From: a virus
Length of the DNA: 64,000 bases
Strand: one strand, 5' to 3'
IMG/VR virus record: IMGVR_UViG_3300028859_000011
Coordinates: 1 to 64,000 of that record
The notes under the pieces are model-generated. The model saw only the letters and a list, made by a program, of their open reading frames with translations, made no database searches and was not told where the DNA came from. The translations under genes and the position numbers were made by a program. Positions within the stretch are counted from its first letter, which is position 1. Every line of letters starts with the position of its first letter. This document shows positions 3,150 through 61,124 of the stretch, piece after piece.

Positions 3150-3344
3150 ATGTTAATAGTAAAATTAAATAATGGTGATAGCATAGAAAAAGCGTTGAAA
3201 ATATTCAAGAATAAATTTAGAAAAACTAAAGTTACTGAGCAATTAAGAGAAAATCAATATTACAGTAAGCCATCAGAAGAAAAAAGGTTAAATATAAAGA
3301 AAGCTATATATAAACAAGAAAAAGAAAATCAATCAGAAGATTGA
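3150..3344 (+). CDS. rpsU: Ribosomal protein bS21 homologue
   Basis: 64 aa: VKLNNGDSIEKALKIFKNKF...LRENQYYSKPSEEKR matches the bS21 pattern. Confidence 0.9.
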   Translation: MLIVKLNNGDSIEKALKIFKNKFRKTKVTEQLRENQYYSKPSEEKRLNIKKAIYKQEKENQSED

Positions 3345-3356
3345 TTTTCTTTTTCT
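3317..3356. terminator. Bidirectional hairpin shared by two convergent genes
   Basis: Perfect 18 bp arms AGAAAAAGAAAATCAATC / GATTGATTTTCTTTTTCT with a 4 nt loop, inside both coding ends. Confidence 0.75.
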
Positions 3357-3847
3357 ATATCAAATATTTTTTGCAATTTAAGTTTACGTACCAATTTTTT
3401 AGAATCTGATAAAATCTCATCTTTTGATTTATAACAAATAATATTATTTAAATCAACATATAATCTATCACTACATATTGATCCTCTTCTATAAAAAGAA
3501 TTATCTAAAGGAATATAATCATCATTAAATATTGGTCTTTTTATAAGATAATTAAGATCGGATTCTAGTAAATATTTATAATTTTTTTTAATTTTTTTTA
3601 ATATTTCAGAATAAACATCATTCCAATCTTCACCGATTTTAGATTTTATGAATTCTGATAAAGGTCTATCATCGTAGTTATTATAATTATAATAACTATT
3701 CTTAATTTTTTTCATTGATTGATGAATAGGCAATTCTGAAAATAAATCAATATTATGATTTCTTAGTGTTTTTTTACATGTATATTTATTTCTTGATTTT
3801 CTATACTTTCTATATAAATTTTTATCTTTAAGCATAAGAATAATCAT
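3329..3847 (-). CDS. Hypothetical protein with Family B tag
   Basis: RPLSEFIKSKIGEDWNDVYSEI core; VRKLKLQKI near the C-terminus. Confidence 0.7.
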   Translation of the reverse strand: MIILMLKDKNLYRKYRKSRNKYTCKKTLRNHNIDLFSELPIHQSMKKIKNSYYNYNNYDDRPLSEFIKSKIGEDWNDVYSEILKKIKKNYKYLLESDLNYLIKRPIFNDDYIPLDNSFYRRGSICSDRLYVDLNNIICYKSKDEILSDSKKLVRKLKLQKIFDIEKENQSSD

Positions 3848-3853
3848 TAAATT

Positions 3854-4300
3854 TTAAGATTCATTAATCAGATCTCTATATTTTGCAGCAGTTTCATAAT
3901 CTTCTACTTTAACGCAATCTAACATTTTATCAGTAAGAATTTCATGCTGTATTTCACGTATTTTAGGATTATCATATTTATAGTTTTCTATAAAATCTTG
4001 AAATATATCAAAATATTTTTTAGTTTCACTAATAACTTCATCTTTCTTAATATTAGCAACATTAAACATATCTAGCATATCAATATGTTCATTAACTTTT
4101 TCCATTTTAACATACACCTCATAAGCATCAATCATCAAATCATCTATATGAAAAACATCTGTATCTACTGAATCATTAGTCATAGATAGTGCTTTATCAA
4201 ATAATTTTTGATGTTTAAATTCTCTATGATCAAATATATAAAATGTTTGTATCCAAAAAATAAGAGTCATGATGTCTTTTACATTAATTTTTGTTTTCAT
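3854..4300 (-). CDS. Protein with C-terminal UVR (UvrB/UvrC) coiled-coil motif
   Basis: C-terminus MLDCVKVEDYETAAKYRDLI fits the UVR consensus EDYExAAxxRD. Confidence 0.7.
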   Translation of the reverse strand: MKTKINVKDIMTLIFWIQTFYIFDHREFKHQKLFDKALSMTNDSVDTDVFHIDDLMIDAYEVYVKMEKVNEHIDMLDMFNVANIKKDEVISETKKYFDIFQDFIENYKYDNPKIREIQHEILTDKMLDCVKVEDYETAAKYRDLINES

Positions 4301-4321
4301 ATTTTTTTGTTTTATTAATTA

Positions 4322-4732
4322 TTATTTAGAATTTATTTTTTTAATCTCATCATTTAATATAATTAATTGATTAATAGTTAAACTATTAAAAATATTTTTA
4401 ATATTTTCAGTATTTAATATCTTTATTTTTTCTGTTATTTCATTAACAACATTATTTTTTTCTAATTTTTCTAATTTTTCTAATCTTTGTTTTTTTATAT
4501 CTGGACCTGGTATCAATTTACCTACCCTATATAAATCAATAATATTTTTACTTTCTTTTAAAGTAAGATTAGAATATTCTTTCATCATTCTAATTGACGT
4601 TATATATCCTGTACCTGAAAGGTATGCATCAAATCCTGTACCTGAAAGGTATGCATCAAATTCAGATTGATGTTCATATAATATTTTTGCTGCTAATATT
4701 AACGTATCGTTATTTAGTATCACATCTATCAT
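4322..4732 (-). CDS. Protein with ribosomal bL12 C-terminal-domain-like segment
   Basis: ITSIRMMKEYSNLTLKESKNIID resembles the bL12 CTD pattern IxAIKxVRExTGLGLKEAKDLVE. Confidence 0.5.
   Translation of the reverse strand: MIDVILNNDTLILAAKILYEHQSEFDAYLSGTGFDAYLSGTGYITSIRMMKEYSNLTLKESKNIIDLYRVGKLIPGPDIKKQRLEKLEKLEKNNVVNEITEKIKILNTENIKNIFNSLTINQLIILNDEIKKINSK
4606..4659. repeat. Exact 27 bp tandem duplication
   Basis: ATCCTGTACCTGAAAGGTATGCATCAA twice, giving FDAYLSGTG twice in 4322-4732. Confidence 0.95.
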
Positions 4733-4769
4733 TTTATCATCTTTAAAGTAGTATATTTATTTTATTCTA

Positions 4770-4777
4770 CAAAGATA
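4770..4777 (-). promoter_or_regulatory. Bacteroidota-type sigma70 -7 box (TAnnTTTG), representative of nine copies
   Basis: TATCTTTG on the minus strand here. Plus-strand copies at 6798, 24846, 26693, 31940, 48967, 53647, 60398 and 62316, each shortly upstream of a co-oriented gene. Confidence 0.75.
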
Positions 4778-4801
4778 CTACTTTATTATTGAACAACAAA
4801 A

Positions 4802-5113
4802 TTAATTGAATAATTTTTTCAATTTCTTTTTTCTGAGCATTTTTATACCACCAATTATCTCAACATTATCAAATTTAAATTCTTCATATTCTCTTTTCTT
4901 AGAAACATATAATGTACTATACATAACTAGTAAAAAATATTGTTCTTTGAAAAGTGGATGATCTTTTTTTATTTTATTTTTCAATTGAAATATTTTCAAT
5001 TTAAATAAATAAGTAATAAAAGCTTCACTTTTAGATGTTAGCTCGATAGGAATTTTATTTTTTATATGAAAATTAATATCCTTAACAAAATCATATAATT
5101 GATAATTAGACAT
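4802..5113 (-). CDS. Hypothetical protein with Family B tag
   Basis: Ends LRKKKLKKLFN. Confidence 0.65.
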   Translation of the reverse strand: MSNYQLYDFVKDINFHIKNKIPIELTSKSEAFITYLFKLKIFQLKNKIKKDHPLFKEQYFLLVMYSTLYVSKKREYEEFKFDNVEIIGGIKMLRKKKLKKLFN

Positions 5114-5124
5114 TGCTTCATTTT

Positions 5125-9899: not shown

Positions 9900-9950
9900 C
9901 TATAAACTTTTTTTCTTTATTTGTATATATTAAAAATAAATAAGGTAATT

Positions 9951-10193
9951 ATGAACGATATAAAAAATGGAGATATTGTAACACAAAATGAAAATTTTTA
10001 TCATTATTGGAAATGTGAAAAATTTAATTCAAAAGTAATTAGAATAAAAGGCAAAGTTGTATATCTTAATGATTCAATATCAATAATAAACAGAAATGGA
10101 ACAATACAAATAACCAATACATTTAATTTCGATTATTTAAAAATAAATATAACAGAAACAAGAAAAGAAAAATTATTAAAAATAAATGAGTGA
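9951..10193 (+). CDS. Small SH3/KOW-like protein with Family B tag
   Basis: First ATG used; IKNGDIV start, ends RKEKLLKINE. Confidence 0.6.
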   Translation: MNDIKNGDIVTQNENFYHYWKCEKFNSKVIRIKGKVVYLNDSISIINRNGTIQITNTFNFDYLKINITETRKEKLLKINE

Positions 10194-10518
10194 ATTTGAT
10201 GAAATAAATTCCTTAAAAGAAGGAACAGAAAAAAGAGATAAATTAATAAATTTTTATAAAAATTCAGTAAAAATTAACGAATGGCTAAATATTGAAAATA
10301 AAAATTCAATTATACATTTTAAAGATAGAATAGAATATAAAAAAAATAATCAATATCATAGACTTAATGGACCTGCAATTGATTATGAAAATATAGATAA
10401 AGATAAATATTACTATAAAGGAAAACTATATGATTCTAAAAATGAATGGTTAAAAATAACACAAAAAGAAGTAAGAAAAATAAAATTGAAAAGACTAAAA
10501 AAAGAAAGTTCAGAATAA
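10186..10518 (+). CDS. HRxxGPA-module protein with Family B tag
   Basis: YHRLNGPAI beta-hairpin module; ends VRKIKLKRLKKESSE. Confidence 0.65.
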   Translation: MSEFDEINSLKEGTEKRDKLINFYKNSVKINEWLNIENKNSIIHFKDRIEYKKNNQYHRLNGPAIDYENIDKDKYYYKGKLYDSKNEWLKITQKEVRKIKLKRLKKESSE

Positions 10519-17324: not shown

Positions 17325-17686
17325 TTTTCAATTTCAATTGTTTTAGAATCATCTATTATAGTTTTTCCTATAATATTTAACTCGCCATTTATAATTAAAT
17401 CTGATAAATTTGGTATAGTATACGTAACAACATCACTAATTAAAATAAATGTATCATATTGACCATATTTATCTCCATGTATAAATTCATCCAAATCAAT
17501 TTTATCAATTTCAGTAGTTCCATCCTTAAAAATAGAATTGACAACTACAATTTGATTACTTTTTAACTTTTTATAACACTCATGATCAGATATATTTACT
17601 CCATCTGTCAAATTATTTGTATCTGGATTAAGAACAAATAAAAATAAATTATCTTCTATCCTTAATACTACACCATCATATTTCAT
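17321..17686 (-). CDS. Hypothetical protein
   Basis: ATGA overlaps with both neighbours. Confidence 0.6.
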   Translation of the reverse strand: MKYDGVVLRIEDNLFLFVLNPDTNNLTDGVNISDHECYKKLKSNQIVVVNSIFKDGTTEIDKIDLDEFIHGDKYGQYDTFILISDVVTYTIPNLSDLIINGELNIIGKTIIDDSKTIEIEK

Positions 17687-17928
17687 AATATCTTCATTAA
17701 TTTTAAATATCTACTTAATGTTATATTACTATTAATTAATTTATTTATATCTATAATAACATCATTTATAGACAAAAAAACAATATCATTTAAGTTATAA
17801 ACAAAAAATTCAACCAATTCTATCCTTTCTGTAAAAAATTTATTCTGCGGACTTCCACATTTTTTAGCATAAACTATATGATATACATCTAAATTATCAA
17901 GCTTATCATCAATTATTCCTTTAACCAT
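17683..17928 (-). CDS. Hypothetical protein with Family B tag
   Basis: Ends SRYLKLMKIL. Confidence 0.6.
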   Translation of the reverse strand: MVKGIIDDKLDNLDVYHIVYAKKCGSPQNKFFTERIELVEFFVYNLNDIVFLSINDVIIDINKLINSNITLSRYLKLMKIL

Positions 17929-30656: not shown

Positions 30657-30878
30657 ATGGGTGTTGTAAGAACTATTAAAGGTGATGATGGTAAGCCATA
30701 TATTTCATTGGAAGATTTAATTAATGAAGTTGAAGAAGCCAGAAATTTTAATTTTGAATATAAAAAAGAAGGTAAAAAATTAGATTTCTCTGATATAATA
30801 CTATCCACGTTACATAATATGGAAATAAATTATTATGAGAGATATATTTTTAGAAGAAAGGATGAGGATAAATTATGA
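30657..30878 (+). CDS. Hypothetical protein
   Basis: Clean ORF after a terminator at 30551-30583. Confidence 0.6.
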   Translation: MGVVRTIKGDDGKPYISLEDLINEVEEARNFNFEYKKEGKKLDFSDIILSTLHNMEINYYERYIFRRKDEDKL

Positions 30879-31228
30879 CGACAGGACAAACATTTAATTT
30901 AGGATTAGTATCTACTTCATATTCTAATTTTGATATATTAAATATAAAACAGAAAAATGGAAATGAAATATTAACTATAACACAGGACGGAGAAATTTAT
31001 TATAATTTTAAAGATGAAATGGTTAAAGTGGAATGTCCAAAAGATATAGTAGATGCGTTTGAATTTTCAATATTAAATTATACTGGTAAATCAATAGATG
31101 ATGTACTTATGAAAAAATGTTTTAACTATATTTCAAGTGATGAAATTTCCAATGAGCATTTATTAAAGTTTGAATCTGCTATTAGAAAAGCAAAATTAAA
31201 AAAATTAAATGATGATAAAAATAGATAG
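30875..31228 (+). CDS. Hypothetical protein with Family B tag
   Basis: Ends IRKAKLKKLNDDKNR. Confidence 0.65.
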   Translation: MTTGQTFNLGLVSTSYSNFDILNIKQKNGNEILTITQDGEIYYNFKDEMVKVECPKDIVDAFEFSILNYTGKSIDDVLMKKCFNYISSDEISNEHLLKFESAIRKAKLKKLNDDKNR

Positions 31229-32011: not shown

Positions 32012-32305
32012 ATGGAAAAGACAAAAACAAAGACATTAGAAGAAATTTTAGAAGAAAATGATATATCTACAAATACTGAAGAAGAAAGTAAATTAATTTT
32101 ATGGAATGATGATGTTAATTCTTTTGAATGGGTAGAAAGTTGTTTAATGCTTTATTTAAAATTTACATTTGAAAAAGCTCAAGCATCAGCATACAATGTA
32201 CATCTTAAAGGAAAAGATATTATTAAGACAGGATCGAAAGATGAGTTGGAGCCATATAAAAAATTATTAGAAGAACGAGGATTAAGCCTTACAATAGAAA
32301 AATAA
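32012..32305 (+). CDS. clpS: ClpS N-degron adaptor
   Basis: LILWNDDVNSFEWV...VHLKGKDIIKTG...RGLSLTIE. Confidence 0.9.
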   Translation: MEKTKTKTLEEILEENDISTNTEEESKLILWNDDVNSFEWVESCLMLYLKFTFEKAQASAYNVHLKGKDIIKTGSKDELEPYKKLLEERGLSLTIEK

Positions 32306-32606: not shown

Positions 32607-35141
32607 ATGAATTACTCAAAAGAAGTAGAAGAAGTTATCAAATTAAGCAAGGAAATTGCTATTAATATTCGTTCTAAGTCTATTAAACCTGAACATTTAT
32701 TTTTGGCAATGATTGATGACGATCATTCTGAAACATCTGAAATATTGAGGGATTTAAATCTCAATATTGGCGCAATTAAGCAAACAATTCGTGAGTTGTC
32801 TACATCTGAACAACCTGGAATAAATACACTTAGAAAGAATGCATCAATTCCAATTGACTCATCAACTGAAAAAATTCTTACAGATTCTGCTATTTTAGCT
32901 AAAAAAATGGGAACAGATGAAGTTAGTGTAGAACATGTTTTATGTGCTATATTAGAAAATAAAAATAATTTAGTATCAGAATTATTTAGTAAATCTCCTG
33001 ATATTTTAAGGAGTCTAATGATGATTTTGAAAAATGAGGATCATCTTGATGAATACAATAATGAAATTAATGAACGAGATATAGAAGATTATCAAGATGA
33101 GTCTAACATTAAAGATGATACTAAAAATAAATCAAAAACTAAATTGATTGATCAGTTTGGTACTAATCTTACCAATCTTGCAAAAGAAGGTAAATTAGAT
33201 CCAGTAGTTGGACGTGCAGATGAAATTAAAAGAATTTCGCAGATATTATCCAGACGTAAGAAAAATAATCCTGTATTAGTAGGTGAACCAGGTGTAGGTA
33301 AATCTGCGATTGTTGAAGGATTAGCTCAATTAATTGTAGATGGACTTGTTCCTGAAAATTTACAAAATAAAAAGGTTATAACTCTTGATATGGGGTCTTT
33401 GGTAGCAGGAACTAAATATCGTGGTGAATTTGAACAAAGATTAAGAGGTATTGTCAAAGAAATGGAAGAAAATACTGATATTATTTTATTCATTGATGAA
33501 ATTCATACTATTATTGGAGCAGGTTCTGCAGCAGGATCACTTGATGCTTCTAATATGTTGAAACCAGGATTAGCCAGAGGAACATTTAGATGTATTGGCG
33601 CTACTACTCTTGAAGAATATAGAAAGTATATTGAAAAAGATGCAGCATTAGAACGTAGATTTCAAAAAGTTGTAATTGATGCAACTAGTAAATCTGAAAC
33701 ATTAGAAATTCTTAAGAATATCAAAAAACAATATGAAAATCATCATAAAGTTACATATACTGATGATGCATTAGAAGCATGTGTTAATTTATCTGATAAA
33801 TATATATCAGATAAATTCTTTCCAGACAAAGCAATTGATGTTCTTGATGAAGCTGGAGCTATGGTTCATGTTAATGGAACAAGTGCAATTCCAGATAAAA
33901 TTGTAGAACTCAGTAAAAAAATAAAAATTTCTATTTCTGAAAAACTTGAAAGTATTGCAGCACAGAAATTTGAGAAAGCTGCTGTTCATAGAGACAATGA
34001 AAAACAATGGAAATCTGAACTTGAATCAGAAAGAGAAATATGGAGTCAGGAACATACTGATCATAGAGATGTAGTAACTCAAAAAGAAATAGCTGAAGTT
34101 GTTGCCCTAATGACAAAAATACCTGTAGATAATGTATCCGTTGATGAAAATAACAAGTTAAAATTTATGGCGGATAAAGTAAAAACTGTTGTTATTGGAC
34201 AAGATGATGCTGTTGATAAAATAGTTCAATCAGTTAAAAGGGCAAGAGTTGGTATTACTAATCATAGTAAGCCTGTTGGGTCTTTTGTTTTCTCTGGACC
34301 TACTGGAGTAGGTAAAACATATCTTGCAAAAATTATGGCAAAGGAGTTATTTGGATCAGAAGATGCAATGATTAGAATTGATATGAGTGAATTTATGGAA
34401 AAATTCTCTGTATCTAGATTAGTAGGAGCACCTCCAGGCTATGTTGGATATGAAGAAGGTGGTAAATTAACAGAAGCAGTAAGACGTAAACCATATTCTA
34501 TTATTCTTCTTGATGAAATGGAAAAAGCTCATCCAGATGTTCAAAATATACTTCTTCAAGTATTAGATGATGGTGTATTAACTGATAGTAATGGTCGTAA
34601 AGTAGATTTTAAAAATACTATTATAGTTATGACAACAAATGCAGGTTCAAGAAAATTGAAAGATTTTGGTGCTGGAATTGGATTTGGACTTAATAAAAAC
34701 AGTCAGCAATCTAAAAATGATGTTCTTAAAAAAGAATTAGAAAAAGTATTTAGTCCTGAATTTTTAAATCGTATTGATGAAATTATAAATTTCAATTCTT
34801 TAAGTAAAGAAAATATTTGTGGCATTATTGATGTTGAATGTAAATCTTTGATATCTAATCTTAAAGAAAAAGGATATGATATAATTATATCTCAATCACT
34901 TAAAGATTACTTATTTGAAAATGGTTATGATGAAAATTATGGAGCAAGGCCATTAAAACGAGCAATTCAAAGTAATATCGAAGATAAACTCGCTGATGCT
35001 ATTATTGATCAAGAAATCTCAGTTGGTGATAAAATATCATTAATATATGATAAAGAAAGTTCATCTGTTAAAATTTCAAAATTGTCAACTAAAGAGATTA
35101 AGGCTAGTAATATCTTAACAGAAAATACTACAGTTTCTTAA
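32607..35141 (+). CDS. clpC: ClpC-type AAA+ unfoldase
   Basis: Clp N-domain, GEPGVGKS and GPTGVGKT Walker A motifs, UVR-type M-domain ([11 protein letters not shown]) and ClpP-docking IGF loop (GAGIGFG). Confidence 0.92.
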
Positions 35142-36761: not shown

Positions 36762-37403
36762 TCAAACAACATTATCCTTATATCTTTCAGGATTTGAGCA
36801 TTCTGGTATGACTCTAATTTTAGGACTTACAGGCATTTTTAATTCTTTTTCTTCAGATTCTTTAATCTTAATTAATCCAAAAATCGCATAATTAATCATA
36901 TCAAAATAATTTGCATCAATTCCTTCTGATATTATAGTTTTACCGTCATTATCTTCAATTTGTTTAGTTCTATATATTTTCATTAAAATTAAATCAGTAT
37001 ATGATTCTATTCTCATTGATCTCCAAGCTTCGCCATAATCATGATTTTTATTTAACATTAATTCTTTAGCTTTCTGGATATATTTATTATATAATTTTAT
37101 TCCTTTATCATAAGATAAATCATCTGAATCAGAGTAGCCAAGTTCTAATTGAATTAATCCAATTATTCCATAATTTACAATCGCTATCAATTCTGAATTA
37201 ATTCCTTCGTCAATTTTTTTCTCTAATTTAATTTCTATACTTCTAATTCTATTAGCTTTTATAAATATCTGATCTGTAACAGATTTTGGCCTTAAAATTC
37301 TCCAAGAAGAACCATAATCTTTCATTTTTTTAGTGTAAATATTTAAGCAATCATTTATTATTTGATCAAATTCCTCAATAGTTTTATTTATTTTATTCGT
37401 CAT
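36762..37403 (-). CDS. DUF1599 (nucleotide-modification-associated) protein with tandem domains
   Basis: KKMKDYGSSWRILR...IFIKANRIR and KNHDYGEAWRSMR...KIYRTKQIE, the Bacteroidota two-domain form. Confidence 0.75.
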   Translation of the reverse strand: MTNKINKTIEEFDQIINDCLNIYTKKMKDYGSSWRILRPKSVTDQIFIKANRIRSIEIKLEKKIDEGINSELIAIVNYGIIGLIQLELGYSDSDDLSYDKGIKLYNKYIQKAKELMLNKNHDYGEAWRSMRIESYTDLILMKIYRTKQIEDNDGKTIISEGIDANYFDMINYAIFGLIKIKESEEKELKMPVSPKIRVIPECSNPERYKDNVV

Positions 37404-37974
37404 TTTTCAATATATTTTTTAATTTATCTGATCTTTTTTCTTTTACTGATAATTTATTATTTTCATATAATATTTTTTCGAATTTAAAATTGACATTTAA
37501 TTTGCTTAAATTACAATATCCATTTTTAAATTTAAAATTATTCTCAATATTTGTAAATTGAAATTTTGTATAACATATTGTCATCAATTTTGAAATTTTT
37601 ATTTTAACTGACATTTTTATTTCATCTTCTATTAATTCCATTAATTTTTCATATGGTTGTATTCTATTGCCAGATAATTCACAATTAAATATAAAAGTTT
37701 TATCATTAATTTCACATAAAGAATCAGATAATTTAGAATCGTTATCAAATTCAAAAATGACAGAATAATTTAAACATTCTAAGAAATTTAATGATTCTTT
37801 ATTTTCTACTCCATAAAAATAATTTGGATTAATACAACTACCATATAATTCATTTATAGTAGTATTATTATAATTTCCAGTAGTAATATTTGATGATATA
37901 GATGTTGCTAATGTTGATGTTGATGCTAAAGTGTTAGATAAATTTAAATTTGCTAAGTTATTAAATATAGACAT
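37393..37974 (-). CDS. Family B tagged protein, possibly a degenerate tail-tube fold
   Basis: Ser/Thr-rich N-terminus, beta-rich core ending LNVNFKFEKI, then KRSDKLKNIL; similar layout to 50747-51214. Confidence 0.45.
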   Translation of the reverse strand: MSIFNNLANLNLSNTLASTSTLATSISSNITTGNYNNTTINELYGSCINPNYFYGVENKESLNFLECLNYSVIFEFDNDSKLSDSLCEINDKTFIFNCELSGNRIQPYEKLMELIEDEIKMSVKIKISKLMTICYTKFQFTNIENNFKFKNGYCNLSKLNVNFKFEKILYENNKLSVKEKRSDKLKNILKNDE

Positions 37975-42310: not shown

Positions 42311-42556
42311 ATGAAATATGAAAAACATAAATATGGAATATGGAATTTAAATTATCCAACAGAAATAGATAATTTTGCGTATAATATATATCTATTGGAA
42401 TTTAATAAAAAATATTTAAAAGGTTCTCCTTATTTAGATCAAATAACATTTAAATCATATTATCATAAGAATAATGATAATGAATATTATAAAAAAGCAA
42501 AGCAATTAATTAGAATAAATAAATTAGAAAAAATAAATAAATTAGAAAATAAATAA
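42311..42556 (+). CDS. Family B tagged protein (paralogue of 55553-55813)
   Basis: GIWNL...DNFAY...YYKKAKQLIRINKLEKI. Confidence 0.65.
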   Translation: MKYEKHKYGIWNLNYPTEIDNFAYNIYLLEFNKKYLKGSPYLDQITFKSYYHKNNDNEYYKKAKQLIRINKLEKINKLENK

Positions 42557-49008: not shown

Positions 49009-49722
49009 ATGTCAAAAATAAAAATTAATAATGAATATGCAGTCAGAATAAATCATCCAGAATTTGGAATTTTTTATTTTTCATATTCTAGTAATAATAT
49101 AAAAGGAGAAACATTTGTATTTACTAAAAATTTATCTAAAGTTCAAACTTGGAAAACAATAAAATTTTCAGATAATCAAATTAATGTAATTATATCAGCA
49201 ATGAAATTTAAGACTCGTAATATATATTTATCACTTGATAAAAATATAGAAAATAAAACACAAGATAATATTATAAAATCAAGAAATAAATATTATTATG
49301 TTATTGATTCATCACAAGATATCAAATCAAAAATGCTTCTATTAACTGCAGATAAAAATATAAAAAAATTAAATGATACATTAATAGAAGATTCAGAAAG
49401 TATATATAATTTATATACTAATATTAAAACTAATGTCATCACAAGTAATTTTAAAAAAATCAATAATTGTGATGTAGATTTTGATAAAATATTAAAAGAT
49501 TCAAATGATACATTATCAGCTATTCAATTACAGAATGATATACAAAATGAATTAGCACTTAAAGTGAATAATTATATTGATGATATTTCACAATATAAGA
49601 AAGATAACAATATTTTAAAAGAATTTGAATGCTATACTGGAATATATTTAGATGTTATTGATGCATCTTATGGTTTTAGAAAATTAAAATTAAAATTACT
49701 TAATAATATTAATAATCACTAA
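49009..49722 (+). CDS. Hypothetical protein with Family B tag
   Basis: TACATTTG box upstream; ends FRKLKLKLLNN. Confidence 0.65.
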   Translation: MSKIKINNEYAVRINHPEFGIFYFSYSSNNIKGETFVFTKNLSKVQTWKTIKFSDNQINVIISAMKFKTRNIYLSLDKNIENKTQDNIIKSRNKYYYVIDSSQDIKSKMLLLTADKNIKKLNDTLIEDSESIYNLYTNIKTNVITSNFKKINNCDVDFDKILKDSNDTLSAIQLQNDIQNELALKVNNYIDDISQYKKDNNILKEFECYTGIYLDVIDASYGFRKLKLKLLNNINNH

Positions 49723-50430: not shown

Positions 50431-50733
50431 ATGTTCAAATTAGAAATAGAAACTTGTATGAGTGAACCTCCAATTATTATTGATATAGAATCTTTTAAAG
50501 CATTTGATAGAAAGAAATCCGAAATTCATAAGATGTTAAATAGTTATATATTTGAAATAAATACAAAACAAATCAGAGATGAAATTAAAGAAAATGTATT
50601 AAAAATTTTAAGTATGGATATAATAAATATTAGAAGAGAAAAACTTAAAATATTGGATGAAATTTCTGGAAATAAAAAAATAAAAAAATATTATCATAAT
50701 GATATGATGATCAAGTACAATATTGAAATATAA
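50431..50733 (+). CDS. Hypothetical protein with Family B tag
   Basis: IRREKLKIL; AAACTTTT...TATTAT motif upstream. Confidence 0.6.
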   Translation: MFKLEIETCMSEPPIIIDIESFKAFDRKKSEIHKMLNSYIFEINTKQIRDEIKENVLKILSMDIINIRREKLKILDEISGNKKIKKYYHNDMMIKYNIEI

Positions 50734-50746
50734 AAACAACTGAATA

Positions 50747-51214
50747 ATGATGACATTACCTCATTTTAATTCTATACAAAACTGTTGTTATAATATAGAT
50801 CCTATTTATCAATCATGTTTTGAAGTTAGATTTAATAATAAATTTTTACTAGATAATTGTATATCTATAGAAAATAATATTATTAATTTTAATCTTTATA
50901 TTTATGAAAATGAGTTACAACCATTTAATATTATAAATGATATGATTAATAATAACGAAATTATAAATTATTTAGAAATTATAAATTATAATAACGAAGG
51001 TACAATAAAATATGCAGTATTTTTAGAAAAATTTAAATTTGTAGAATTTGTAGGATTTCTTGATTTTGATTTGGTTAAATATGATAAAAAATATAATATA
51101 AAAAATTTACATGTTAAATTTAAATATGATAAAATGACTGTAATTATAGAAAAAAAATATAATAACTTTATTAGAAAAATTAAAATTAAGTGTTTAAATG
51201 AAAAAGATTCATAA
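50747..51214 (+). CDS. Degenerate tail-tube-like protein with Family B tag
   Basis: LPHFNS...IDPIYQSCFEV start, YNNEG strand and LHVKFKYD end resemble gp19-type tubes; ends IRKIKIKCL. Confidence 0.5.
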   Translation: MMTLPHFNSIQNCCYNIDPIYQSCFEVRFNNKFLLDNCISIENNIINFNLYIYENELQPFNIINDMINNNEIINYLEIINYNNEGTIKYAVFLEKFKFVEFVGFLDFDLVKYDKKYNIKNLHVKFKYDKMTVIIEKKYNNFIRKIKIKCLNEKDS

Positions 51215-53682: not shown

Positions 53683-54189
53683 ATGAAATCATTTGAAACT
53701 ATATTTAACAATTGGATAAGTAGTAAAGTTGAATTTCAACTTAAAATAATAGATAACATTGCATCTGAAACGGGAGTTGATCCTGAAAAATGGTTTATTG
53801 AAAATTTTTTACGTAGGCATATCGGAGATTATACTGAAGATGATTTTTTAAACGTTCTTCTACAAGAATATATAGGTTATTTATCTAATGAATTTGACAA
53901 AATTGTAGGGGTTTATTTAGAAAGTGATAAACATAATATGTATGGAGAACCAATATATGACATATATATAACATTAGAATATGATTTTGATAATAATAAT
54001 ATTTTTATTAATGAAGAGTACGGAGAAAGAGTTGATATTGAAAAAGTCATACAATCAGTATCTCTTAATAATAGATCTGTGTTGATGAAAAATAAATTAT
54101 TTTCATATATCATTAATAAAACAAATTTAAATATTTTTTCTAAAAAAGATATAAGAGCATTAAAATTGAAACAATTAAATGAAATATAA
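53683..54189 (+). CDS. Hypothetical protein with Family B tag
   Basis: TATCTTTG box upstream; ends IRALKLKQLNEI. Confidence 0.65.
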   Translation: MKSFETIFNNWISSKVEFQLKIIDNIASETGVDPEKWFIENFLRRHIGDYTEDDFLNVLLQEYIGYLSNEFDKIVGVYLESDKHNMYGEPIYDIYITLEYDFDNNNIFINEEYGERVDIEKVIQSVSLNNRSVLMKNKLFSYIINKTNLNIFSKKDIRALKLKQLNEI

Positions 54190-54391
54190 AATTAATGATA
54201 TTGTATTGCTTAATAATGATATTAAATTAAAAATAATAGAAATTGGTGAAATTTCATTGTATTATGTAGTAGTATATTTAACAGAATCACGTCGCACTTA
54301 TATTGATTCTGAATATTTAGATTATAATTCATATCTAATAGATATTAAATATTTAAGAAAAGAAAAATTAAATAAATTATATGAAATATAA
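54179..54391 (+). CDS. SH3/KOW-like small protein with Family B tag
   Basis: MKYKINDIV ... LRKEKLNKLYEI. Confidence 0.7.
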   Translation: MKYKINDIVLLNNDIKLKIIEIGEISLYYVVVYLTESRRTYIDSEYLDYNSYLIDIKYLRKEKLNKLYEI

Positions 54392-54617
54392 AGTAGGAGA
54401 TATTGTAGTTGGAAACATTGTAGTTGGAAACATTTTTAAAATCGAAATTATAAGTATTTTGAATAATGAATATGAATATTGTCTAACATGCAGGTCAAAT
54501 AAAAAAATTACGAAATGGTGCACGATATCAATTGATAATTATACTAAATTAGATGATCAATATCTTAGAAAAGAAAAATTAAAGAAATTATATGATACTT
54601 CAGCAGTGGTTAAATAG
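54381..54617 (+). CDS. SH3/KOW-like small protein with Family B tag
   Basis: MKYKVGDIVVGNIVVGN (15 bp duplication) ... LRKEKLKKL. Confidence 0.7.
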   Translation: MKYKVGDIVVGNIVVGNIFKIEIISILNNEYEYCLTCRSNKKITKWCTISIDNYTKLDDQYLRKEKLKKLYDTSAVVK

Positions 54618-55152
54618 TCAAGATTTTTTAGAAAAAGATCAATTTGAAAAAAGAAAAATATTAAAAAGATGCATACTTACAGATAAATTTTGTATAATAG
54701 GTAAAACTGTTATATGCTTTGAAACTGAACGGTATTGTAATGAAAACAATAAAAGATATTATGATCCATCAATTAAAGGATGTAATTTAACTATTGGTAA
54801 ATCATATAATATATTAGATCATAATATTGGTAAAATAAAAGTTTTAAATGATAACAATAAAAAAGTATGGTGCACAATTAAAAGATTTATATATTCAATA
54901 AAATATGAGAGAAGAGATAAATTAAAACAAATTGATAACGAAGAAAATGATATATCAGATAAAAAATTAATTTGTGTTTTATGCGGGCAAGAATGGGGAG
55001 TAGAAAATAAGTTTACAAATACTTGTGAAAATATCGAATGTAATGGTTTCTGTACTTGGGGATATTCTCCTATGAAACCAGAAAGTTTTACAATTGATGA
55101 TAACGGATTTTGGCATTTAAAACCAATTCCGAAAGATTTAAATAATTTATAA
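54592..55152 (+). CDS. SH3-like domain, internal Family B tag and Cys-rich C-terminal domain
   Basis: LTIGKSYNI ... ERRDKLKQI ... CVLCG...CENIECNGFC. Confidence 0.65.
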   Translation: MILQQWLNSQDFLEKDQFEKRKILKRCILTDKFCIIGKTVICFETERYCNENNKRYYDPSIKGCNLTIGKSYNILDHNIGKIKVLNDNNKKVWCTIKRFIYSIKYERRDKLKQIDNEENDISDKKLICVLCGQEWGVENKFTNTCENIECNGFCTWGYSPMKPESFTIDDNGFWHLKPIPKDLNNL

Positions 55153-55552: not shown

Positions 55553-55813
55553 ATGATTATAGATAAAGGATGGGGATATTGGAATTTAAAAAACTCTACA
55601 ATATTTGATGATATAGCATATTATCTATTTGTACAATATTATGTACATGACTACAAAGATTCTCAATTATATATGTCAAATATGGAATATGAGCCACCTA
55701 ATCAAAAATGGTTTTATTTCAGGAAACTTTATTATGAAAAATATTACAATAAAGCAAATATTATATTAAGAAAAGAAAAATTAAATAAAATAAATGAAAC
55801 TATAATAGAATAA
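55553..55813 (+). CDS. Family B tagged protein (paralogue of 42311-42556)
   Basis: WGYWNL...DDIAY...YYNKANIILRKEKLNKI. Confidence 0.65.
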   Translation: MIIDKGWGYWNLKNSTIFDDIAYYLFVQYYVHDYKDSQLYMSNMEYEPPNQKWFYFRKLYYEKYYNKANIILRKEKLNKINETIIE

Positions 55814-56150: not shown

Positions 56151-56182
56151 AAATAAATAAATAAATAAATAAATATAATATT

Positions 56183-56623
56183 ATGTCAAGTGTTACAGAA
56201 AAATTAGAAGAATATTTAGAGTTTTTAAAAACTCCTGAGGGTGAAGAAAGTATTCGTGAGTTCCGAGAAAAATTACAATTAGAAGATGATCAAAATAATA
56301 TTAATATCGAAAGAATTAAAAAAATGTTCAATGATCAAGAAACTTTTGATTCTTTAGTCAATAGAATAATAAGCAAAAATGGAGAAGAATGGAGGGACAA
56401 ATGTTACAAAAATGGTTGTACACCATATCCAACTCAACTATTATACTCATTGTTTGATTTAGCAGAAAAAGAAGGAACTGAAATAACAGAATCTATTGAT
56501 GATTTTACAAGTCATTTTCCGTCTGATATCTGTGAATATAACGGTTGGCAATTTGCTTTGACATATGGTCAAGGTACATGTAGTAGTATATACTACAATA
56601 AAAAATTAATGTATAGAGATTGA
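56183..56623 (+). CDS. Hypothetical protein
   Basis: Clean ORF. Confidence 0.6.
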   Translation: MSSVTEKLEEYLEFLKTPEGEESIREFREKLQLEDDQNNINIERIKKMFNDQETFDSLVNRIISKNGEEWRDKCYKNGCTPYPTQLLYSLFDLAEKEGTEITESIDDFTSHFPSDICEYNGWQFALTYGQGTCSSIYYNKKLMYRD

Positions 56624-56877
56624 ATTCAATTAAAACAGTAAAATCAAGATATAGTATAACTACAATATCATCAAGTTATTATAATACACTTTCATCAAGT
56701 TATAATACAAATGACATTATTTCTGGTTCAACTGGATTATTAGAGCAAGGTTATATATTTGTTCCTTATATAATGTCTACAACAACATCAATTATTACTG
56801 AATCAAGAGAATGGAAGATACAGAGATTAAGAGAAAAACGGATAGAAAAACTTAATAAATTAGGTTGGAATGAATAA
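56620..56877 (+). CDS. Family B tagged peptide carrying a major-capsid-like motif
   Basis: LLEQGYIFVPYI resembles the gp23-family C-terminal [DE]xG[YL][IVF][YF][AC]PY[VI]P motif; ends KRIEKLNKL. Confidence 0.5.
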   Translation: MNSIKTVKSRYSITTISSSYYNTLSSSYNTNDIISGSTGLLEQGYIFVPYIMSTTTSIITESREWKIQRLREKRIEKLNKLGWNE

Positions 56878-57145
56878 TAACGGTTGGAATCAAGGTGATG
56901 AAATAGTATGTATAAATAATAGTAGTTATCCAAATATATTAACTATTGGAAGATCATATAAAATTATTGGAATTCATTGTAATACTAATATTAATAAATA
57001 TCAAGTTATTATTCAATCAAATAGTAATAGTTATACATTAACTGTATTTTGTGATTTGTTTTTATCACTCAATGATTTTAATAAAAAACAAAGACTTGAT
57101 AAGTTAAAAAAACTTAATAAATTATGCAATATAAATATTCAATAG
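56870..57145 (+). CDS. SH3-like paralogue with Family B tag
   Basis: QGDEIVCINN...LTIGRSYKI...QRLDKLKKL. Confidence 0.7.
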   Translation: MNNNGWNQGDEIVCINNSSYPNILTIGRSYKIIGIHCNTNINKYQVIIQSNSNSYTLTVFCDLFLSLNDFNKKQRLDKLKKLNKLCNINIQ

Positions 57146-57381
57146 ATGATAACGTTATCTGCATTTTAAATGATAATGGATATGAAAGATATTTAACAAT
57201 TGGAAAAACATATAAAGTCTTATATGTTTATATTGGAAAAATAACTAAATTAGAACATATATATGTTAACTCTGATATAAAGCATCAAGATATTAAACCA
57301 TTAAGTAGTCAATTTTTAACTATTAATAAATTTAAAAAATTTCAAAGAAAAGAAAAACTAATTAGATTAAATCTATTATAA
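57124..57381 (+). CDS. SH3-like paralogue with Family B tag
   Basis: DDNVICILND...LTIGKTYKV...QRKEKLIRL. Confidence 0.7.
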   Translation: MQYKYSIDDNVICILNDNGYERYLTIGKTYKVLYVYIGKITKLEHIYVNSDIKHQDIKPLSSQFLTINKFKKFQRKEKLIRLNLL

Positions 57382-57404
57382 CAATAATAAAAATAAAATA
57401 GTAT

Positions 57405-57626
57405 ATGAAGATATTAAGAAAAAATGACACTTTTAAAAAATTACCTGATGGAAGTATTAATGAAGTTGTTAGTATAAAATCTTATATTGAACAAGGATGG
57501 AAATATTGTTCGAAAAAAGAATATAAAGATTTTTTCAAATCAGGAGTTTCAGAGAAATTAGAAGAAAAGAAAATAGAAAAAGCTGAAAATAAAGAAAAAA
57601 AGAAAGAAAAAAAGAAAAATAAATGA
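57405..57626 (+). CDS. Small basic hypothetical protein
   Basis: GWKYCSKKEYK core and Lys/Glu tail. Confidence 0.55.
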   Translation: MKILRKNDTFKKLPDGSINEVVSIKSYIEQGWKYCSKKEYKDFFKSGVSEKLEEKKIEKAENKEKKKEKKKNK

Positions 57627-58057
57627 TTTTAGATATAATCAAATATGATGATTCTAACTCAGGTAAATTACGAAAAATAAATGTAGACGTAAAAAAAGAA
57701 AATCCTTTTTTAATTTCTTTGATTAAAGATATGTTTGAAACTATTAATTATCATAATTTTGAATTTGGATTATCTGCGCCACAAGTTGGACACAATTTAA
57801 ATTTATTTGTAATTAATAATCCTGATTTAAAAGAAGTATTTATAAATCCAGAAATAAAACTTGATGGATTTCTTATACAAAATAAAGAAAAATGCTTAAG
57901 CTTTCCTAATTTAGAATTTCCAATTAATAGAAGATCAATAGTTCATATTAAATATTATGATATTAATTGGAATTATAAATTATCTACATTTAAAGATTTA
58001 AATGCCATCGCAATTCAACATCAATTTGATCATATTAACGGTAAATTAATAATATAA
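57623..58057 (+). CDS. def: Peptide deformylase homologue with substituted catalytic Glu
   Basis: GLSAPQVG, EKCLSFP and QHQFDHING (canonical HExDH); no C-terminal helix. Confidence 0.85.
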   Translation: MILDIIKYDDSNSGKLRKINVDVKKENPFLISLIKDMFETINYHNFEFGLSAPQVGHNLNLFVINNPDLKEVFINPEIKLDGFLIQNKEKCLSFPNLEFPINRRSIVHIKYYDINWNYKLSTFKDLNAIAIQHQFDHINGKLII

Positions 58058-58063
58058 AATATA

Positions 58064-58435
58064 ATGAAAGCACCAAACGAAATTAGCGTAATTTCAATTA
58101 ACAATAAAGAAGACGTTTTAAAAACAATTGAACTTTTTAACAAAATTGGAATTAATGTATTTAAAGATAAACTATCAAAGAATTGGTTTATTTTGTCCGA
58201 AGAAGAAATAACAAAATGTTTTCTAATATCAGATAATGACGGTAACTGGAGACTACAATCTCATTTTTTAACAGATGGAATATCAGTTAAACAATTAGAA
58301 GAAATTATTAATACAGTATTATCAATAAATGAACAAATTAAAAATGATATTGGAAGTGTGAATAATTTAAAAAATGAACTTAAAAAATTTAAAAAATCAA
58401 TTAAAGAATTTGAAAATAAATTAAATTCATTATAA
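58064..58435 (+). CDS. Hypothetical protein
   Basis: Clean ORF with a coiled-coil tail. Confidence 0.55.
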   Translation: MKAPNEISVISINNKEDVLKTIELFNKIGINVFKDKLSKNWFILSEEEITKCFLISDNDGNWRLQSHFLTDGISVKQLEEIINTVLSINEQIKNDIGSVNNLKNELKKFKKSIKEFENKLNSL

Positions 58436-58436
58436 T

Positions 58437-58814
58437 ATGTTTAATAGGAAAAAGAAAGAAAGAAAAAGAAAACTAAAATATGAAGAATTAAATAAATTGT
58501 TCAGGATTAAACATGGAATTATTTGTAATTGGCGGAACAGAAAATATTCTTATCCTCCAGATACAATAGAAGGAAAAAATTTTCATAAAAATTTTTATTA
58601 TTTTTTTGTACAGGAATATGGTAATTTTTCACATTCTTTCAATGAATTTGCTTGTGTTAATTATGCTTTTGATCCAAAATTTGATCATTATCCAGTTGAA
58701 AAACTAAAAGAATTATATGATAAGATTGAAATAACTTTTCCTGAACCATTTATTCAAATTAATAGATTAAAAAAACTGAAATATATAAATTCTGTTAAAT
58801 ATGAAGAAAGGTGA
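58437..58814 (+). CDS. Hypothetical protein with Family B tag
   Basis: Ends NRLKKLKYI... Confidence 0.6.
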   Translation: MFNRKKKERKRKLKYEELNKLFRIKHGIICNWRNRKYSYPPDTIEGKNFHKNFYYFFVQEYGNFSHSFNEFACVNYAFDPKFDHYPVEKLKELYDKIEITFPEPFIQINRLKKLKYINSVKYEER

Positions 58815-59031
58815 TAAAATTACTTATATGAGTAACGATATTTGTATTTTCGATAAATATAAAACATATACTATTATTAATATACACAAAGATATTATAA
58901 CAAATGTGAGTTATCTTGATAATTATAAAAATTTATGTTATATAGTTTGTAGTTATACTATGAATAAATTCATAACATATAATCAATATAGAAAATTAAA
59001 ATTAAATAAAATTAATGAAAAAATATGTTAG
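58801..59031 (+). CDS. SH3-like small protein with Family B tag
   Basis: MKKGDKITY ... YRKLKLNKI. Confidence 0.65.
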   Translation: MKKGDKITYMSNDICIFDKYKTYTIINIHKDIITNVSYLDNYKNLCYIVCSYTMNKFITYNQYRKLKLNKINEKIC

Positions 59032-59207
59032 TAAAAGAATTAATAGAAAAAATAGAAGAATTAAGAGTAATATATCCTAATATTGATGATATTGAAATTG
59101 GACCACTTTTTGATGATAGTGCAGTGATGATGATTAGTGATTTGACGATAGAAGAAGGAACAGGATGGGAAACTGACGATGCAATTGGTATAATTTGGAA
59201 TTGTTAA
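59025..59207 (+). CDS. Small acidic hypothetical protein
   Basis: MLVKELIEKI start; overlaps the previous stop. Confidence 0.55.
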   Translation: MLVKELIEKIEELRVIYPNIDDIEIGPLFDDSAVMMISDLTIEEGTGWETDDAIGIIWNC

Positions 59208-59234
59208 GTTTTTATAAAAAAAAATAAATATTAA

Positions 59235-59477
59235 ATGTTAGAGGAAATTATAAATAATTATCCAGATGAAGAAATATTATCTGCTGATGGATTAGATGAT
59301 GCAGTTATTGGACTTGAAATAAACTCAATGAGATTGATATACTCAGTATCAAAATGTATTGAAATATTTATAAATGACGGCATGACAGAAGAAGAAGCAG
59401 AAGAATATTTTGAATATAATACTGCTAACGCTTATGTGGGTGATCATACACCAATATGGTGCTACGATGATTTTTAA
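59235..59477 (+). CDS. Conserved phage hypothetical protein
   Basis: ADGLDDAVIG...EEAEEYFEYN...YVGxxTP is a pattern I recognise from aquatic phages. Confidence 0.7.
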   Translation: MLEEIINNYPDEEILSADGLDDAVIGLEINSMRLIYSVSKCIEIFINDGMTEEEAEEYFEYNTANAYVGDHTPIWCYDDF

Positions 59478-59717
59478 AAATAACAATATTATGAAAAAAT
59501 GGACAGATTTATTGGTAGGTGATCCAATATATATTTTAAAATATGTTAAAAAAATATAACTAGTTTTATTGAAACAAAATGTGAAGGATTTGATAACATA
59601 GGTTATGCAATTGTTATTTATTATTATGTTGAGAGATTAGCAAATGATAAAGATTTTGAAGGTAAAGATTCCGTTACAAAAAATTTAAATAAAAATATAA
59701 AAAAGTGTAAATAAAAT

Positions 59718-59724
59718 AAACTTT
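59718..59724 (+). promoter_or_regulatory. Putative middle-type promoter motif AAACTTT, representative copy
   Basis: Also at about 1184, 9904, 31972, 42279, 42586, 45071 and 50391, and on minus near 38005 and 48817, generally followed by a TATTAT-like hexamer. Confidence 0.5.
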
Positions 59725-59760
59725 TTTAAAATATTATACTATTAAATATAATTAAACAAA

Positions 59761-60097
59761 TAGTTCTTTGATGTCATGATAAAATGGTTGTTAGTTAAAA
59801 ACTTAACTAACGTAAAATCATAAAAGTAATAAGTTTGATTAAAAATCAAACTGAAACTTTTAATCTTTATACATATCAATAATATTGATTACAGTAAACA
59901 TAAAACGATTAATACACTTTTAAATACATCTTAACAACGGACTATAATAAGTCTTAAAAATGGTTGTTCGTTATGTAGTTTAAATAATTAAAAGCGACTA
60001 CGATTTCTTTAAACTATAGAGAATAGTGTGTTCGGATAAAGAATTTCATCAAACGAAATTCAAACGTCACAGCAAGTACAAATTTGTATAAGTTTAA
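59761..60097 (+). ncRNA. Candidate ~340 nt structured non-coding RNA
   Basis: ORF-free; at least seven short stems; AAACTTT-type promoter motif at 59718; boxA-like AGTTCTTTGA at its 5' end. Confidence 0.5.
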
Positions 60098-60415
60098 GTT
60101 GACGGTACTGGATTATATTTTCCATTATATAAAGCAGATATAGATAGTTCTAAAACAGAAGATAATAATAACTATTACTTTTGCGATATTGATGCTGTTA
60201 TAGATGAAATGAATGAATATGAAAAAGATTTAAATGATTTAAAATCTAAATTTAATAAATTATTTGATACTATAATTGATATAAAAAATAAATAATTTGA
60301 TTTGATGTATATTTTTTGTTCAATTAAATATGATGTTCATTGTCAATGAAGTTAATATTATTTTGAACAAAATATTTTTTATATCAAGATATTATTGTAT
60401 ATTTGCAAAAAAATT

Positions 60416-60616
60416 ATGAAAGATAAAAAATCAGAAGATATATATTCTAATTGGGTTAAAGATTCAGGAATAAAAGATTTGACTGGTAATCAATCAAATT
60501 TTGTTAAAATGATTATTTTAAATAGAAAATATATTTGTGAAATAGGAAGCTTTAATAAAATATTTATTAGCATTTATAAATATTTGAAGAATAATCGTGA
60601 AAAATTAGAAGATTGA
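60416..60616 (+). CDS. Hypothetical protein
   Basis: First ATG after the TATATTTG box at 60398. Confidence 0.5.
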   Translation: MKDKKSEDIYSNWVKDSGIKDLTGNQSNFVKMIILNRKYICEIGSFNKIFISIYKYLKNNREKLED

Positions 60617-60619
60617 AAT

Positions 60620-60871
60620 ATGAAATCTAAAAATTATAAAATAGGTGAAAAAATAGTTTGTATAGATAATTTCACATTATATTCACCAGATACAAAATTA
60701 AGTAATATAAAATTATTAGAAATAGGTAAAGTGTATACTGTTAGTAGTGGTTATTACACTAATGAAGAATTGGGACTTAATGAAATATCTCACCATTTAT
60801 TCAATAATAATAGATTTATAAAAATTTCAGAATTAAGAAAATATAAATTAGAAAAATTAAATGAAATATAA
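60620..60871 (+). CDS. SH3-like paralogue with Family B tag
   Basis: IGEKIVCIDN...LEIGKVYTV...LRKYKLEKL. Confidence 0.7.
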   Translation: MKSKNYKIGEKIVCIDNFTLYSPDTKLSNIKLLEIGKVYTVSSGYYTNEELGLNEISHHLFNNNRFIKISELRKYKLEKLNEI

Positions 60872-61124
60872 AGACTATAAATATGGTACTAAAATGATTT
60901 GCATTGATAATTATTCACGATATTCTAGTATAGAATTAGGCGGTTCTATCTCATTATTAAAAATGGGAGAAACCTATACTTTTAATTCTATTAATAGTTA
61001 TGGTGAAATTAATTTTAAGGAATTTCCTAATGCACTTTTTAGAAAACAAAGATTTATAGAATATTCAAAATTTAGAAAATATAAATTAGAAAAGTTAAAT
61101 AATATTAAAAATCCATCTGTTTAA
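60861..61124 (+). CDS. SH3-like paralogue with Family B tag
   Basis: GTKMICIDN...MGETYTF...FRKYKLEKL. Confidence 0.7.
   Translation: MKYKDYKYGTKMICIDNYSRYSSIELGGSISLLKMGETYTFNSINSYGEINFKEFPNALFRKQRFIEYSKFRKYKLEKLNNIKNPSV

Follow-up and report, generated by a model that had tools for sequence, protein, structure and literature searches.

We analyzed the first 64 kilobases (kb), hereafter the window, of a single contig of 125,546 base pairs (IMG/VR virus record IMGVR_UViG_3300028859_000011), where many small and otherwise dissimilar proteins end in one short peptide, R..KL..[LI], which we call the tag. The contig has a G+C content of 22%, no terminal repeats, a CheckV completeness of about 18% and, under the standard genetic code, a coding density of 91%. 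Among its products are a tail-fibre chaperone domain, an SbcCD-like nuclease, an NAD ligase and a ClpC-type ATPase, and since homologs of one of its proteins are borne by contigs of 531 and 711 kb, it is a piece of a very large, uncultured peat phage. Near-identical DNA is present in peat and freshwater metagenomes of several studies. Gene counts for the contig refer to the 232 genes that we obtained by our own greedy calling of open reading frames (ORFs).

A previous, sequence-only reading had named 23 ORFs of the window as carriers of the tag, and in all 23 the motif was found at the place given. Two classes recur among them, a beta-type class 1 with the signature GDxVxCIN and a helical class 2 in which DDIAYxLY...YYxKAxxIL runs into the tag. 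On the minus strand, a carrier of 172 amino acids (aa; 3329..3847) has the tag RKLKLQKI (3365-3388) 11 aa before its stop and no coupled downstream gene, and the same strand encodes a 103-aa carrier (4802..5113; RKKKLKKL, 4811-4834), an 81-aa carrier with the weaker tag RYLKLMKI (17683..17928; tag 17689-17712) and a 193-aa carrier (37393..37974; RSDKLKNI, 37411-37434). The remaining carriers are on the plus strand. A class-1 gene at 9921..10193 (RKEKLLKI, 10161-10184) had been listed at 9951, which is an ATG within this TTG-started ORF; the next ATG lies 1 nucleotide (nt) past its tag and belongs to a 110-aa carrier (10186..10518; RKIKLKRL, 10474-10497), which is followed by a terminator-like hairpin and no coupled gene. 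Then come a 117-aa carrier (30875..31228; RKAKLKKL, 31184-31207), a class-2 carrier (42311..42556; RINKLEKI, 42512-42535) and a 237-aa carrier that forms a single-gene unit (49009..49722; RKLKLKLL, 49678-49701). In the 100-aa protein at 50431..50733 the motif (RREKLKIL, 50632-50655) is sub-terminal, 25 aa from the end, and the 155-aa carrier at 50747..51214 has the K-I variant RKIKIKCL (51173-51196).

A further group of carriers is an array at 53.7-59.5 kb, whose first gene codes for a 168-aa carrier (53683..54189; RALKLKQL, 54154-54177), with a TAnnTTTG sequence 28 nt upstream of the unit. It is followed by class-1 carriers at 54179..54391 (RKEKLNKL, 54356-54379), which overlaps the next gene by 11 nt, and at 54381..54617 (RKEKLKKL, 54567-54590), by a 186-aa fusion protein (54592..55152), by a class-2 carrier (55553..55813; RKEKLNKI, 55769-55792), by an 85-aa carrier (56620..56877; RIEKLNKL, 56839-56862), by two more class-1 carriers (56870..57145; RLDKLKKL, 57092-57115; and 57124..57381; RKEKLIRL, 57346-57369), by a 125-aa carrier (58437..58814; RLKKLKYI, 58764-58787) and by another class-1 carrier (58801..59031; RKLKLNKI, 58990-59013). 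Two further class-1 genes, at 60620..60871 and 60861..61124, have the same tag RKYKLEKL (60836-60859 and 61074-61097, respectively), and the second ends at a terminator-like hairpin. The fusion protein had been listed as having its tag internally, which we confirmed: a class-1-like body and the tag RRDKLKQI (54910-54933) are followed, in frame, by a Cys-rich domain, so that the tag stands at a domain boundary and the gene resembles a fused cassette.

Over the whole contig we found 48 matches to R..KL..[LI] in the gene set, 45 of which lie no more than 12 residues from the stop. The expected number of C-terminal matches was 0.16 when whole proteins were shuffled and 0.59 when only the last 20 residues were, which keeps the local Lys-rich composition, and the maximum reached in 2000 trials was 4. 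The sequence-only reading had called for this comparison and would have abandoned the tag had there been no enrichment over a Lys-rich background; the excess is far above that background. Allowing for the K-I variant at positions 4/5 added six more genes, and six-frame matches outside the gene calls added about 5 more small ORFs or remnants, which brings the total to about 55 carriers, mostly small proteins and about one fifth of the genes. Two degraded copies lie close together on the contig: a decayed class-2 paralog (105355-105552), whose tag is now IKNKKLII, with R changed to K, and a 25-codon remnant (~105773-105850) that still encodes RKNKLEKI.

To what extent are the carriers related to one another? 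BLASTP of the bodies, stripped of their tags, gave 36 clusters. Class 1 comprises 9 genes of the window, 13 of the contig and 36 across all the loci we fetched, class 2 comprises 2, about 10 and 35, respectively, and the other carriers belong to smaller helical classes or are larger singletons. The sequence-only reading had described the bodies as unrelated, which is too strong for the nine class-1 and the two class-2 genes of the window, as these are kin, but it holds among families and larger carriers, which without their tags have no relation to one another. HHalign comparisons of tag-stripped profiles gave only 0.1-0.3% between class 1, class 2 and the body of a Zn-ribbon carrier described below; with the tags kept, the sole alignment was one of 17 columns over the tag, at 85%. 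The predicted folds differ as well (AlphaFold models), an alpha/beta Zn-ribbon protein in one case and a small helical bundle in the other. Searches of Pfam and PHROGs gave no match for 44 of 45 carriers, the exception being a MazG protein whose "tag" is probably there by chance. We found no homology beyond the motif that would make the carriers a single paralogous family, and class-1-like N-domains also occur with other C-termini.

A natural experiment on the tag is offered by a carrier that lies outside the window. It is a tagged Zn-ribbon protein of 174 aa (contig 68365-68889), encoded directly downstream of the phage ClpP (67608-68357), and it has 997 homologs in the databases. Among the best 120 of these, 69 have a variable linker followed by ELRKIKLDKLN; most of the untagged ones stop a few residues past the last CxxC, and some bear other, untagged tails. 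In homologs from 80 bacterial and archaeal genome-assembly loci the tag was absent (0/62). Within the tagged set, column conservation is 0.84 in the tag and 0.75 in the body but drops to 0.47 in the linker, a poorly conserved stretch of about 15-20 aa. On a quick maximum-likelihood tree of limited resolution, the state of the tag changes 9 times, against 38.5 times with shuffled labels (0 of 500 shuffles were as low), and one large group, with a few nested losses, holds 68 of the 70 tagged members. These results show that the tag was added, behind a linker, to a pre-existing and widely distributed protein, and the pattern is that expected of an independently functional, portable module. Foldseek found no match in the PDB for the Zn-ribbon model at E <= 0.001. 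The protein is a conserved neighbor of ClpP, adjacent or two genes away, in tagged and untagged huge phages alike (L001:3608-4889; L012, L015, L101), and its body may be a ClpP-associated factor. The next gene downstream (contig 69021-70481; L001:5021-6478) codes for a 486-aa TnpB/Cas12f-like protein with a Cas12f1-like TNB domain.

Presence or absence of the tag is a property of whole genomes rather than of single genes. A profile of the tag matched 69, 32 and 9 times in three related virus records of 235, 47 and 38 kb, respectively, and 0 times in a complete phage of 642 kb whose ClpC is 57% identical. Among the genes around tagged orthologs of the Zn-ribbon protein, the tag is borne by 7 of 43, 4 of 31 and 6 of 39, the third locus being that of a deep-branching relative with 27.6% G+C; around untagged orthologs, which include loci of 23-29% G+C, the counts are 0/40, 0/19, 0/36, 0/9 and 0/9. 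In the 80 bacterial and archaeal loci only 1 of 1907 genes is tagged. Tags on many unrelated genes are thus shown to appear and vanish together genome-wide, and this concerted gain and loss points to a lineage- or host-specific reader that acts in trans. One relative of 23% G+C, in which the Zn-ribbon ortholog has lost its tag, has two adjacent paralogs that end in ..FKQYNQEII (L100:192-1099); this may be another dialect of the tag, although the sample is too small to tell. The deep-branching tagged relative also encodes release-factor fragments with PCRF and RF-1 domains (L101:4198-4881).

We derived a logo from 113 distinct tags of the contig and its relatives, leaving out the MazG protein (contig 101441-101953, RILKLVTII) and a second protein (78010-78213, RIGKIISI), as we judged both to be chance matches. 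An aliphatic residue ([LI]) at position -1 is followed by R0 in 113/113 tags, K1 in 85, any residue at 2, K3 in 113/113, L4 in 98 (otherwise I), any residue at 5, K6 in 70, [LI] at 7 and N8 in 52, that is, a core consensus [LI]-R-K-x-K-[L>I]-x-K-[LI]-N, after which come 1-13 residues, most often 3-6. Plotted on a helical wheel, R0, K3, L4 and L/I7 share one face (300-40 degrees), opposite x2 and x5, and the tag therefore presents one mixed basic/aliphatic surface. The label "amphipathic" does not suit it: the mean hydrophobic moment is only 0.217, against 0.292 for the same peptides shuffled, 0.41 for MinD and 0.61 for FtsA, because the charged R0 and K3 share a face with L4 and L7. Over 14 residues the net charge is about +3.4, and a HeliQuest-type discriminant, driven by charge, has a mean of 1.31, with half of the tags at 1.34 or above. 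AlphaFold2 modeled the 174-aa Zn-ribbon carrier with a confident body (pLDDT, the model's local confidence score, of 96-98), a dip to 64 in the linker and a helix at residues 155-173 (76-82), while in the 86-aa class-2 protein encoded at 55553..55813 the tag is the distal half of the terminal helix 62-85. In the models, then, the tag is the end of a predicted C-terminal helix: this may follow a variable linker, or it may be the last helix of the protein, whose distal half the tag forms. A search of the ESM Atlas with the tail alone returned generic single-helix matches only, and a profile of the 113 tails found one match among 1.84 billion representative proteins, a result that is uninformative on spread, as 31 positions are too short for a database of that size.

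Such a motif could have been conserved for reasons other than the peptide. The conserved item might be RNA or DNA, either an A-rich initiation or coupling region of the next gene or a recombination junction by which cassettes are shuffled, with the peptide as a by-product. Where a downstream gene is coupled, its ATG lies 1-8 nt past the motif in 28 of 41 cases, so that overlaps at tagged junctions are typically 8-17 nt, as compared with mostly 4 nt for untagged small genes, and the tag-coding RNA occupies the initiation region of the next gene, an adjacency that the sequence-only reading had missed. N8, encoded by AAT, together with a following G often makes the next ATG, Ile-7 is encoded by ATA 44 times and by ATT 8 times (25:26 expected), and AGA is over-used for Arg (104 vs. 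87 expected). Together these biases form an RNA-level overlay on the motif, which is consistent with A being favored immediately before the start codon that follows. At the tagged junctions in the window (53683-61124) and on the contig (103-106, 113.7-115.3 and 122-123.2 kb) the ATA bias suggests a Kozak-like A preference of phage or host. Nevertheless, the bases are not conserved regardless of frame and residue, as they would be in an RNA element. Position 0 is Arg in every tag by way of five codons (AGA, CGA, AGG, CGT and CGG), and none of their non-synonymous one-step neighbors (AAA, AGT/AGC, ACA, ATA, GGA) occurs in the 113 tags, not even the more A-rich AAA. The six codons of Leu-4 were counted 70/13/9/3/2/1 times, against a background-like expectation of 67/9/13/6/1/1, both Leu-4 and Leu-7 use TTA, TTG, CTT, CTA and CTG at background rates, and position 7, which swaps among TTA, ATA, ATT and CTT, is by this measure conserved as an aliphatic residue and not as bases. 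In a six-frame scan, 48 of 61 matches are in gene frame, the remainder being mostly ends of unannotated small ORFs, and the motif is virtually missing from non-coding sequence and from other frames. Moreover, ten carriers lack a coupled gene downstream, some of them ending at terminator-like hairpins; in the Zn-ribbon family, where a gap of more than 100 nt follows and no gene is coupled, the tag is kept in 69 homologs, N8 included. Judged by its codons, the motif is a peptide feature under peptide-level selection, which the RNA overlay does not explain, and the residues past it are largely read-through into the next gene; we give an RNA or DNA origin very little chance. That the peptide is instead an inherited structural or self-association helix, for example for oligomerization, of one ancient and fast-diverging superfamily, with no role in addressing, seems quite improbable to us. 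The tandem arrays do consist of evident paralogs, with classes of more than 30 members across relatives, and in class 2 the tag extends the family-specific part of a well-modeled terminal helix without a break. However, the tag-stripped classes have no detectable homology and different predicted folds, the tag was placed behind a variable linker in a protein whose distant homologs lack it, class-1-like N-domains occur with other C-termini, and with its leucines at i and i+3 the tag is too short and wrongly spaced for a heptad coiled coil.

The tag might also be a generic basic helix that, with no dedicated protein reader, sticks to the membrane or to nucleic acid (nucleoid or ribosome) and so concentrates accessory proteins. 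Its charge and its borderline discriminant would allow this, and many small accessory phage proteins are generally known to act at the envelope or on nucleic acids. However, the hydrophobic moment, below that of shuffled peptides, MinD and FtsA, is not that of a membrane-targeting helix, and thus, of the localization signal that the sequence-only reading had offered as an option, the generic membrane-helix version is disfavored. A generic helix would hardly demand R and never K at position 0 together with an invariant K3, nor be all-or-none between equally AT-rich phages, and we regard it as improbable. Finally, the tag could be the recognition or cleavage signal of a peptidase. On the minus strand of the contig (89913-94424; L002:6916-11424) lie a DUF2201 zinc-peptidase and VWA-like protein, a MoxR-like AAA+ ATPase and a second AAA+ ATPase, of which the peptidase and the MoxR-like ATPase (89.9-93.0 kb) form a pair that is also found in the 235-kb relative; a search with PF13519 (VWA_2) was negative and missed this DUF2201-type VWA, which Pfam found later. 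A logic of variable precursor, conserved C-terminal peptide and zincin peptidase has been published (PMC7159879). However, untagged phages (LR756502, L102) have DUF2201 peptidases too, so that these do not co-vary with the tag, the peptidase lies at least 20-30 kb from the tagged arrays and not beside them, no radical-SAM or other maturation gene was seen, and the tag is unlike the published peptide types, all of which leaves this explanation with hardly any chance.

The element is, on the evidence of these alignments and codons, best described as a lineage-specific peptide tag, and neither as a DNA repeat nor as a family signature. The sequence-only reading had proposed a portable address label, and it fared well: the motif is under peptide-level selection, it sits on non-homologous bodies, it was added after a linker to a pre-existing protein and it comes and goes in concert over genomes. 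With five independent lines from sequence behind it, a portable address or docking label is well supported, and we put the probability that it is a docking tag read by one partner at roughly 0.6. In the mechanism we propose, the mixed basic/aliphatic face would dock the ~55 carriers, and those of the related records, onto a single partner in trans, one that is present in, or exploited by, this phage lineage only. In our preferred concrete version, that partner would be an AAA+ protein-handling machine, with the ClpC-ClpP-ClpS of the phage as first candidate; the layout would be that of SspB (body, flexible linker and terminal docking peptide), and by this means the phage could time the removal or the delivery of its accessory proteins. 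A tether to, or degron for, an AAA+ protease is our leading concrete guess, although we consider it rather unlikely overall.

The candidate machinery is encoded close by. The sequence-only reading had pointed to co-encoded Clp machinery and DnaJ; the window does hold, on its plus strand, a ClpS adaptor (32012..32305; PF02617, E 1.6e-14) and a ClpC-type AAA+ unfoldase (32607..35141), and ClpP lies outside the window at the coordinates given above, but no DnaJ was found. The gene at 35551-36657, considered as a DnaJ, was rejected, as its matches are GH15-like and TPR instead. An McsB-type arginine kinase (PF00217), which would open the phosphoarginine route to ClpC, was found neither in G000 nor in G001, both of which are fragments. 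Peptides and partner proteins are known to activate ClpC through its N-domain (PMC12583610), Gp53 of phage SPO1 is an adaptor-like ligand of ClpC (PMC6873191), and ClpP and ClpS have been mentioned in jumbo phages, with no such tag (PMC7824862). The Clp context is circumstantial, a reason to test Clp first and not evidence.

Several observations weigh against a docking tag with a single reader, and the proposal should be approached with them in mind. The existence and the identity of that reader are inferred from the distribution of the tags. The 642-kb phage that has a ClpC of 57% identity and no tags makes the Clp link only circumstantial, and N- and C-terminal extensions of ClpP, which we considered as a docking site, do not track the tag. 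Since 1-13 residues follow the motif, this is not a classical degron at the extreme C-terminus, and as the class-2 tag continues a confidently modeled helix, part of it could be structural. In addition, the raw counts are inflated, because many carriers are paralogs in tandem arrays, the related records are all fragments, and the greedy ORF calls are reliable for stops, and hence for C-termini, but unreliable for starts.

We compared the tag with known systems in which a short peptide directs a protein to its partner. SspB consists of a substrate-binding body, a flexible linker and the C-terminal ClpX-binding peptide LRVVK. The Zn-ribbon carrier has the same layout, with a fold, a weakly conserved linker and a conserved basic-aliphatic terminal peptide, in a phage with an AAA+ protease that has an N-domain; however, SspB is one adaptor in bacteria, whereas about 1/5 of the genes are involved here, the sequence is another, the tag is helical and not extreme-terminal, and its binding to the N-domain is hypothetical. 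ClpX degrons, either ssrA-like (LAA-COOH) or MuA-like (RRKKAI-COOH), act at a free carboxylate. They are, like the tag, C-terminal, short and portable, and the MuA class shares its basic and aliphatic character, but the tag is longer and helical, and the variable residues that follow it leave it with no free C-terminus of its own. The capsid-targeting sequence of T4 is N-terminal, is cleaved at L/I-x-E by the prohead protease and marks late virion proteins, while the cargo-loading peptides of encapsulins are C-terminal. Both resemble the tag in that a short portable peptide on unrelated proteins of one virus or compartment has one receptor. The tag differs from that of T4 in being C-terminal, on small accessory genes, and exclusive of the Family A proteins (described below), which are candidate late products, and its sequence is unlike the encapsulin consensus. 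Bacterial conflict modules combine small variable precursors that have a conserved C-terminal peptide (FxSxx-COOH, RxD or acidic) with a zincin peptidase (PMC7159879). The diverging small proteins with a conserved C-terminal peptide and the peptidase/MoxR pair on the contig are reminiscent of them; however, the known modules have one to a few precursors adjoining the peptidase, whereas here there are dozens over more than 120 kb, with another peptide and with no peptidase linked to them or co-occurring. Gp53 of SPO1, the product of a host-takeover cluster of small genes that acts via ClpC, is a precedent for manipulation of ClpCP by a phage (PMC6873191), but it is just one protein, of 25 kDa, and shares no tag with others, while the present phage has its own ClpC, ClpP and ClpS and many tagged proteins. 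The sequence-only reading had known of no described system of this kind, and we likewise found no publication that describes a phage-wide C-terminal tag.

A broader proposal would be that very large, AT-rich environmental phages of one clade have an addressing system of their own, in which a dedicated reader (an unfoldase or protease, a gate to a transport system or compartment, or a scaffold) sorts, times or destroys a fifth of the proteome and genes join by acquiring the tag; we offer this tentatively, as possible but more doubtful than the docking tag itself. The genes of huge phages are mostly small ORFans that offer no handle for study, and a tag of about 10 residues on about 20% of them would be a single experimental entry: one peptide could pull down the reader, one set of mutations would test the whole class, and the tagged and untagged orthologs of the Zn-ribbon family are a ready natural control. 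If a protease or a sorting gate proves to be the reader, no addressing or turnover code on a proteome scale would have been described earlier in a bacterial virus, the N-terminal leaders that target T4 proteins to the capsid excepted, and the common control of dozens of fast-evolving accessory proteins would be explained. Synthetic biology in the host clade could also make use of the tag as a portable module.

The transcription units of the tagged genes set them apart from another group of genes on the contig. The Family A genes, recognizable by MKYLKxFE... starts and KFN[LIM] ends, form arrays in the window (20787-24754) and beyond it (contig 77.7-89.8 kb) and are mutually exclusive with the tag; that no Family A protein carries it had been stated in the sequence-only reading, and indeed no gene has both the tag and a KFN[LIM] ending. 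If the broader proposal is true, a single virus would, given these exclusive endings, use two or more orthogonal address codes. The promoter types that had been assigned to the tagged genes were only weakly borne out, as a strict TAnnTTTG is present upstream of 4 of the 19 units with tags and of 12 of the 56 without and does not discriminate between them. Of 29 transcription units, one alone holds both tagged and Family A genes, and TTTATATATA is found ahead of units containing 10 of the 26 Family A genes, as against 2 of the 49 tagged ones. These separate units and the TTTATATATA contrast place the tagged set in a different expression class, whose timing is inferred only. A transcription unit that contains a Family A array is headed by a gene for a 355-aa protein (18818-19885) with matches to homing-endonuclease PHROGs.

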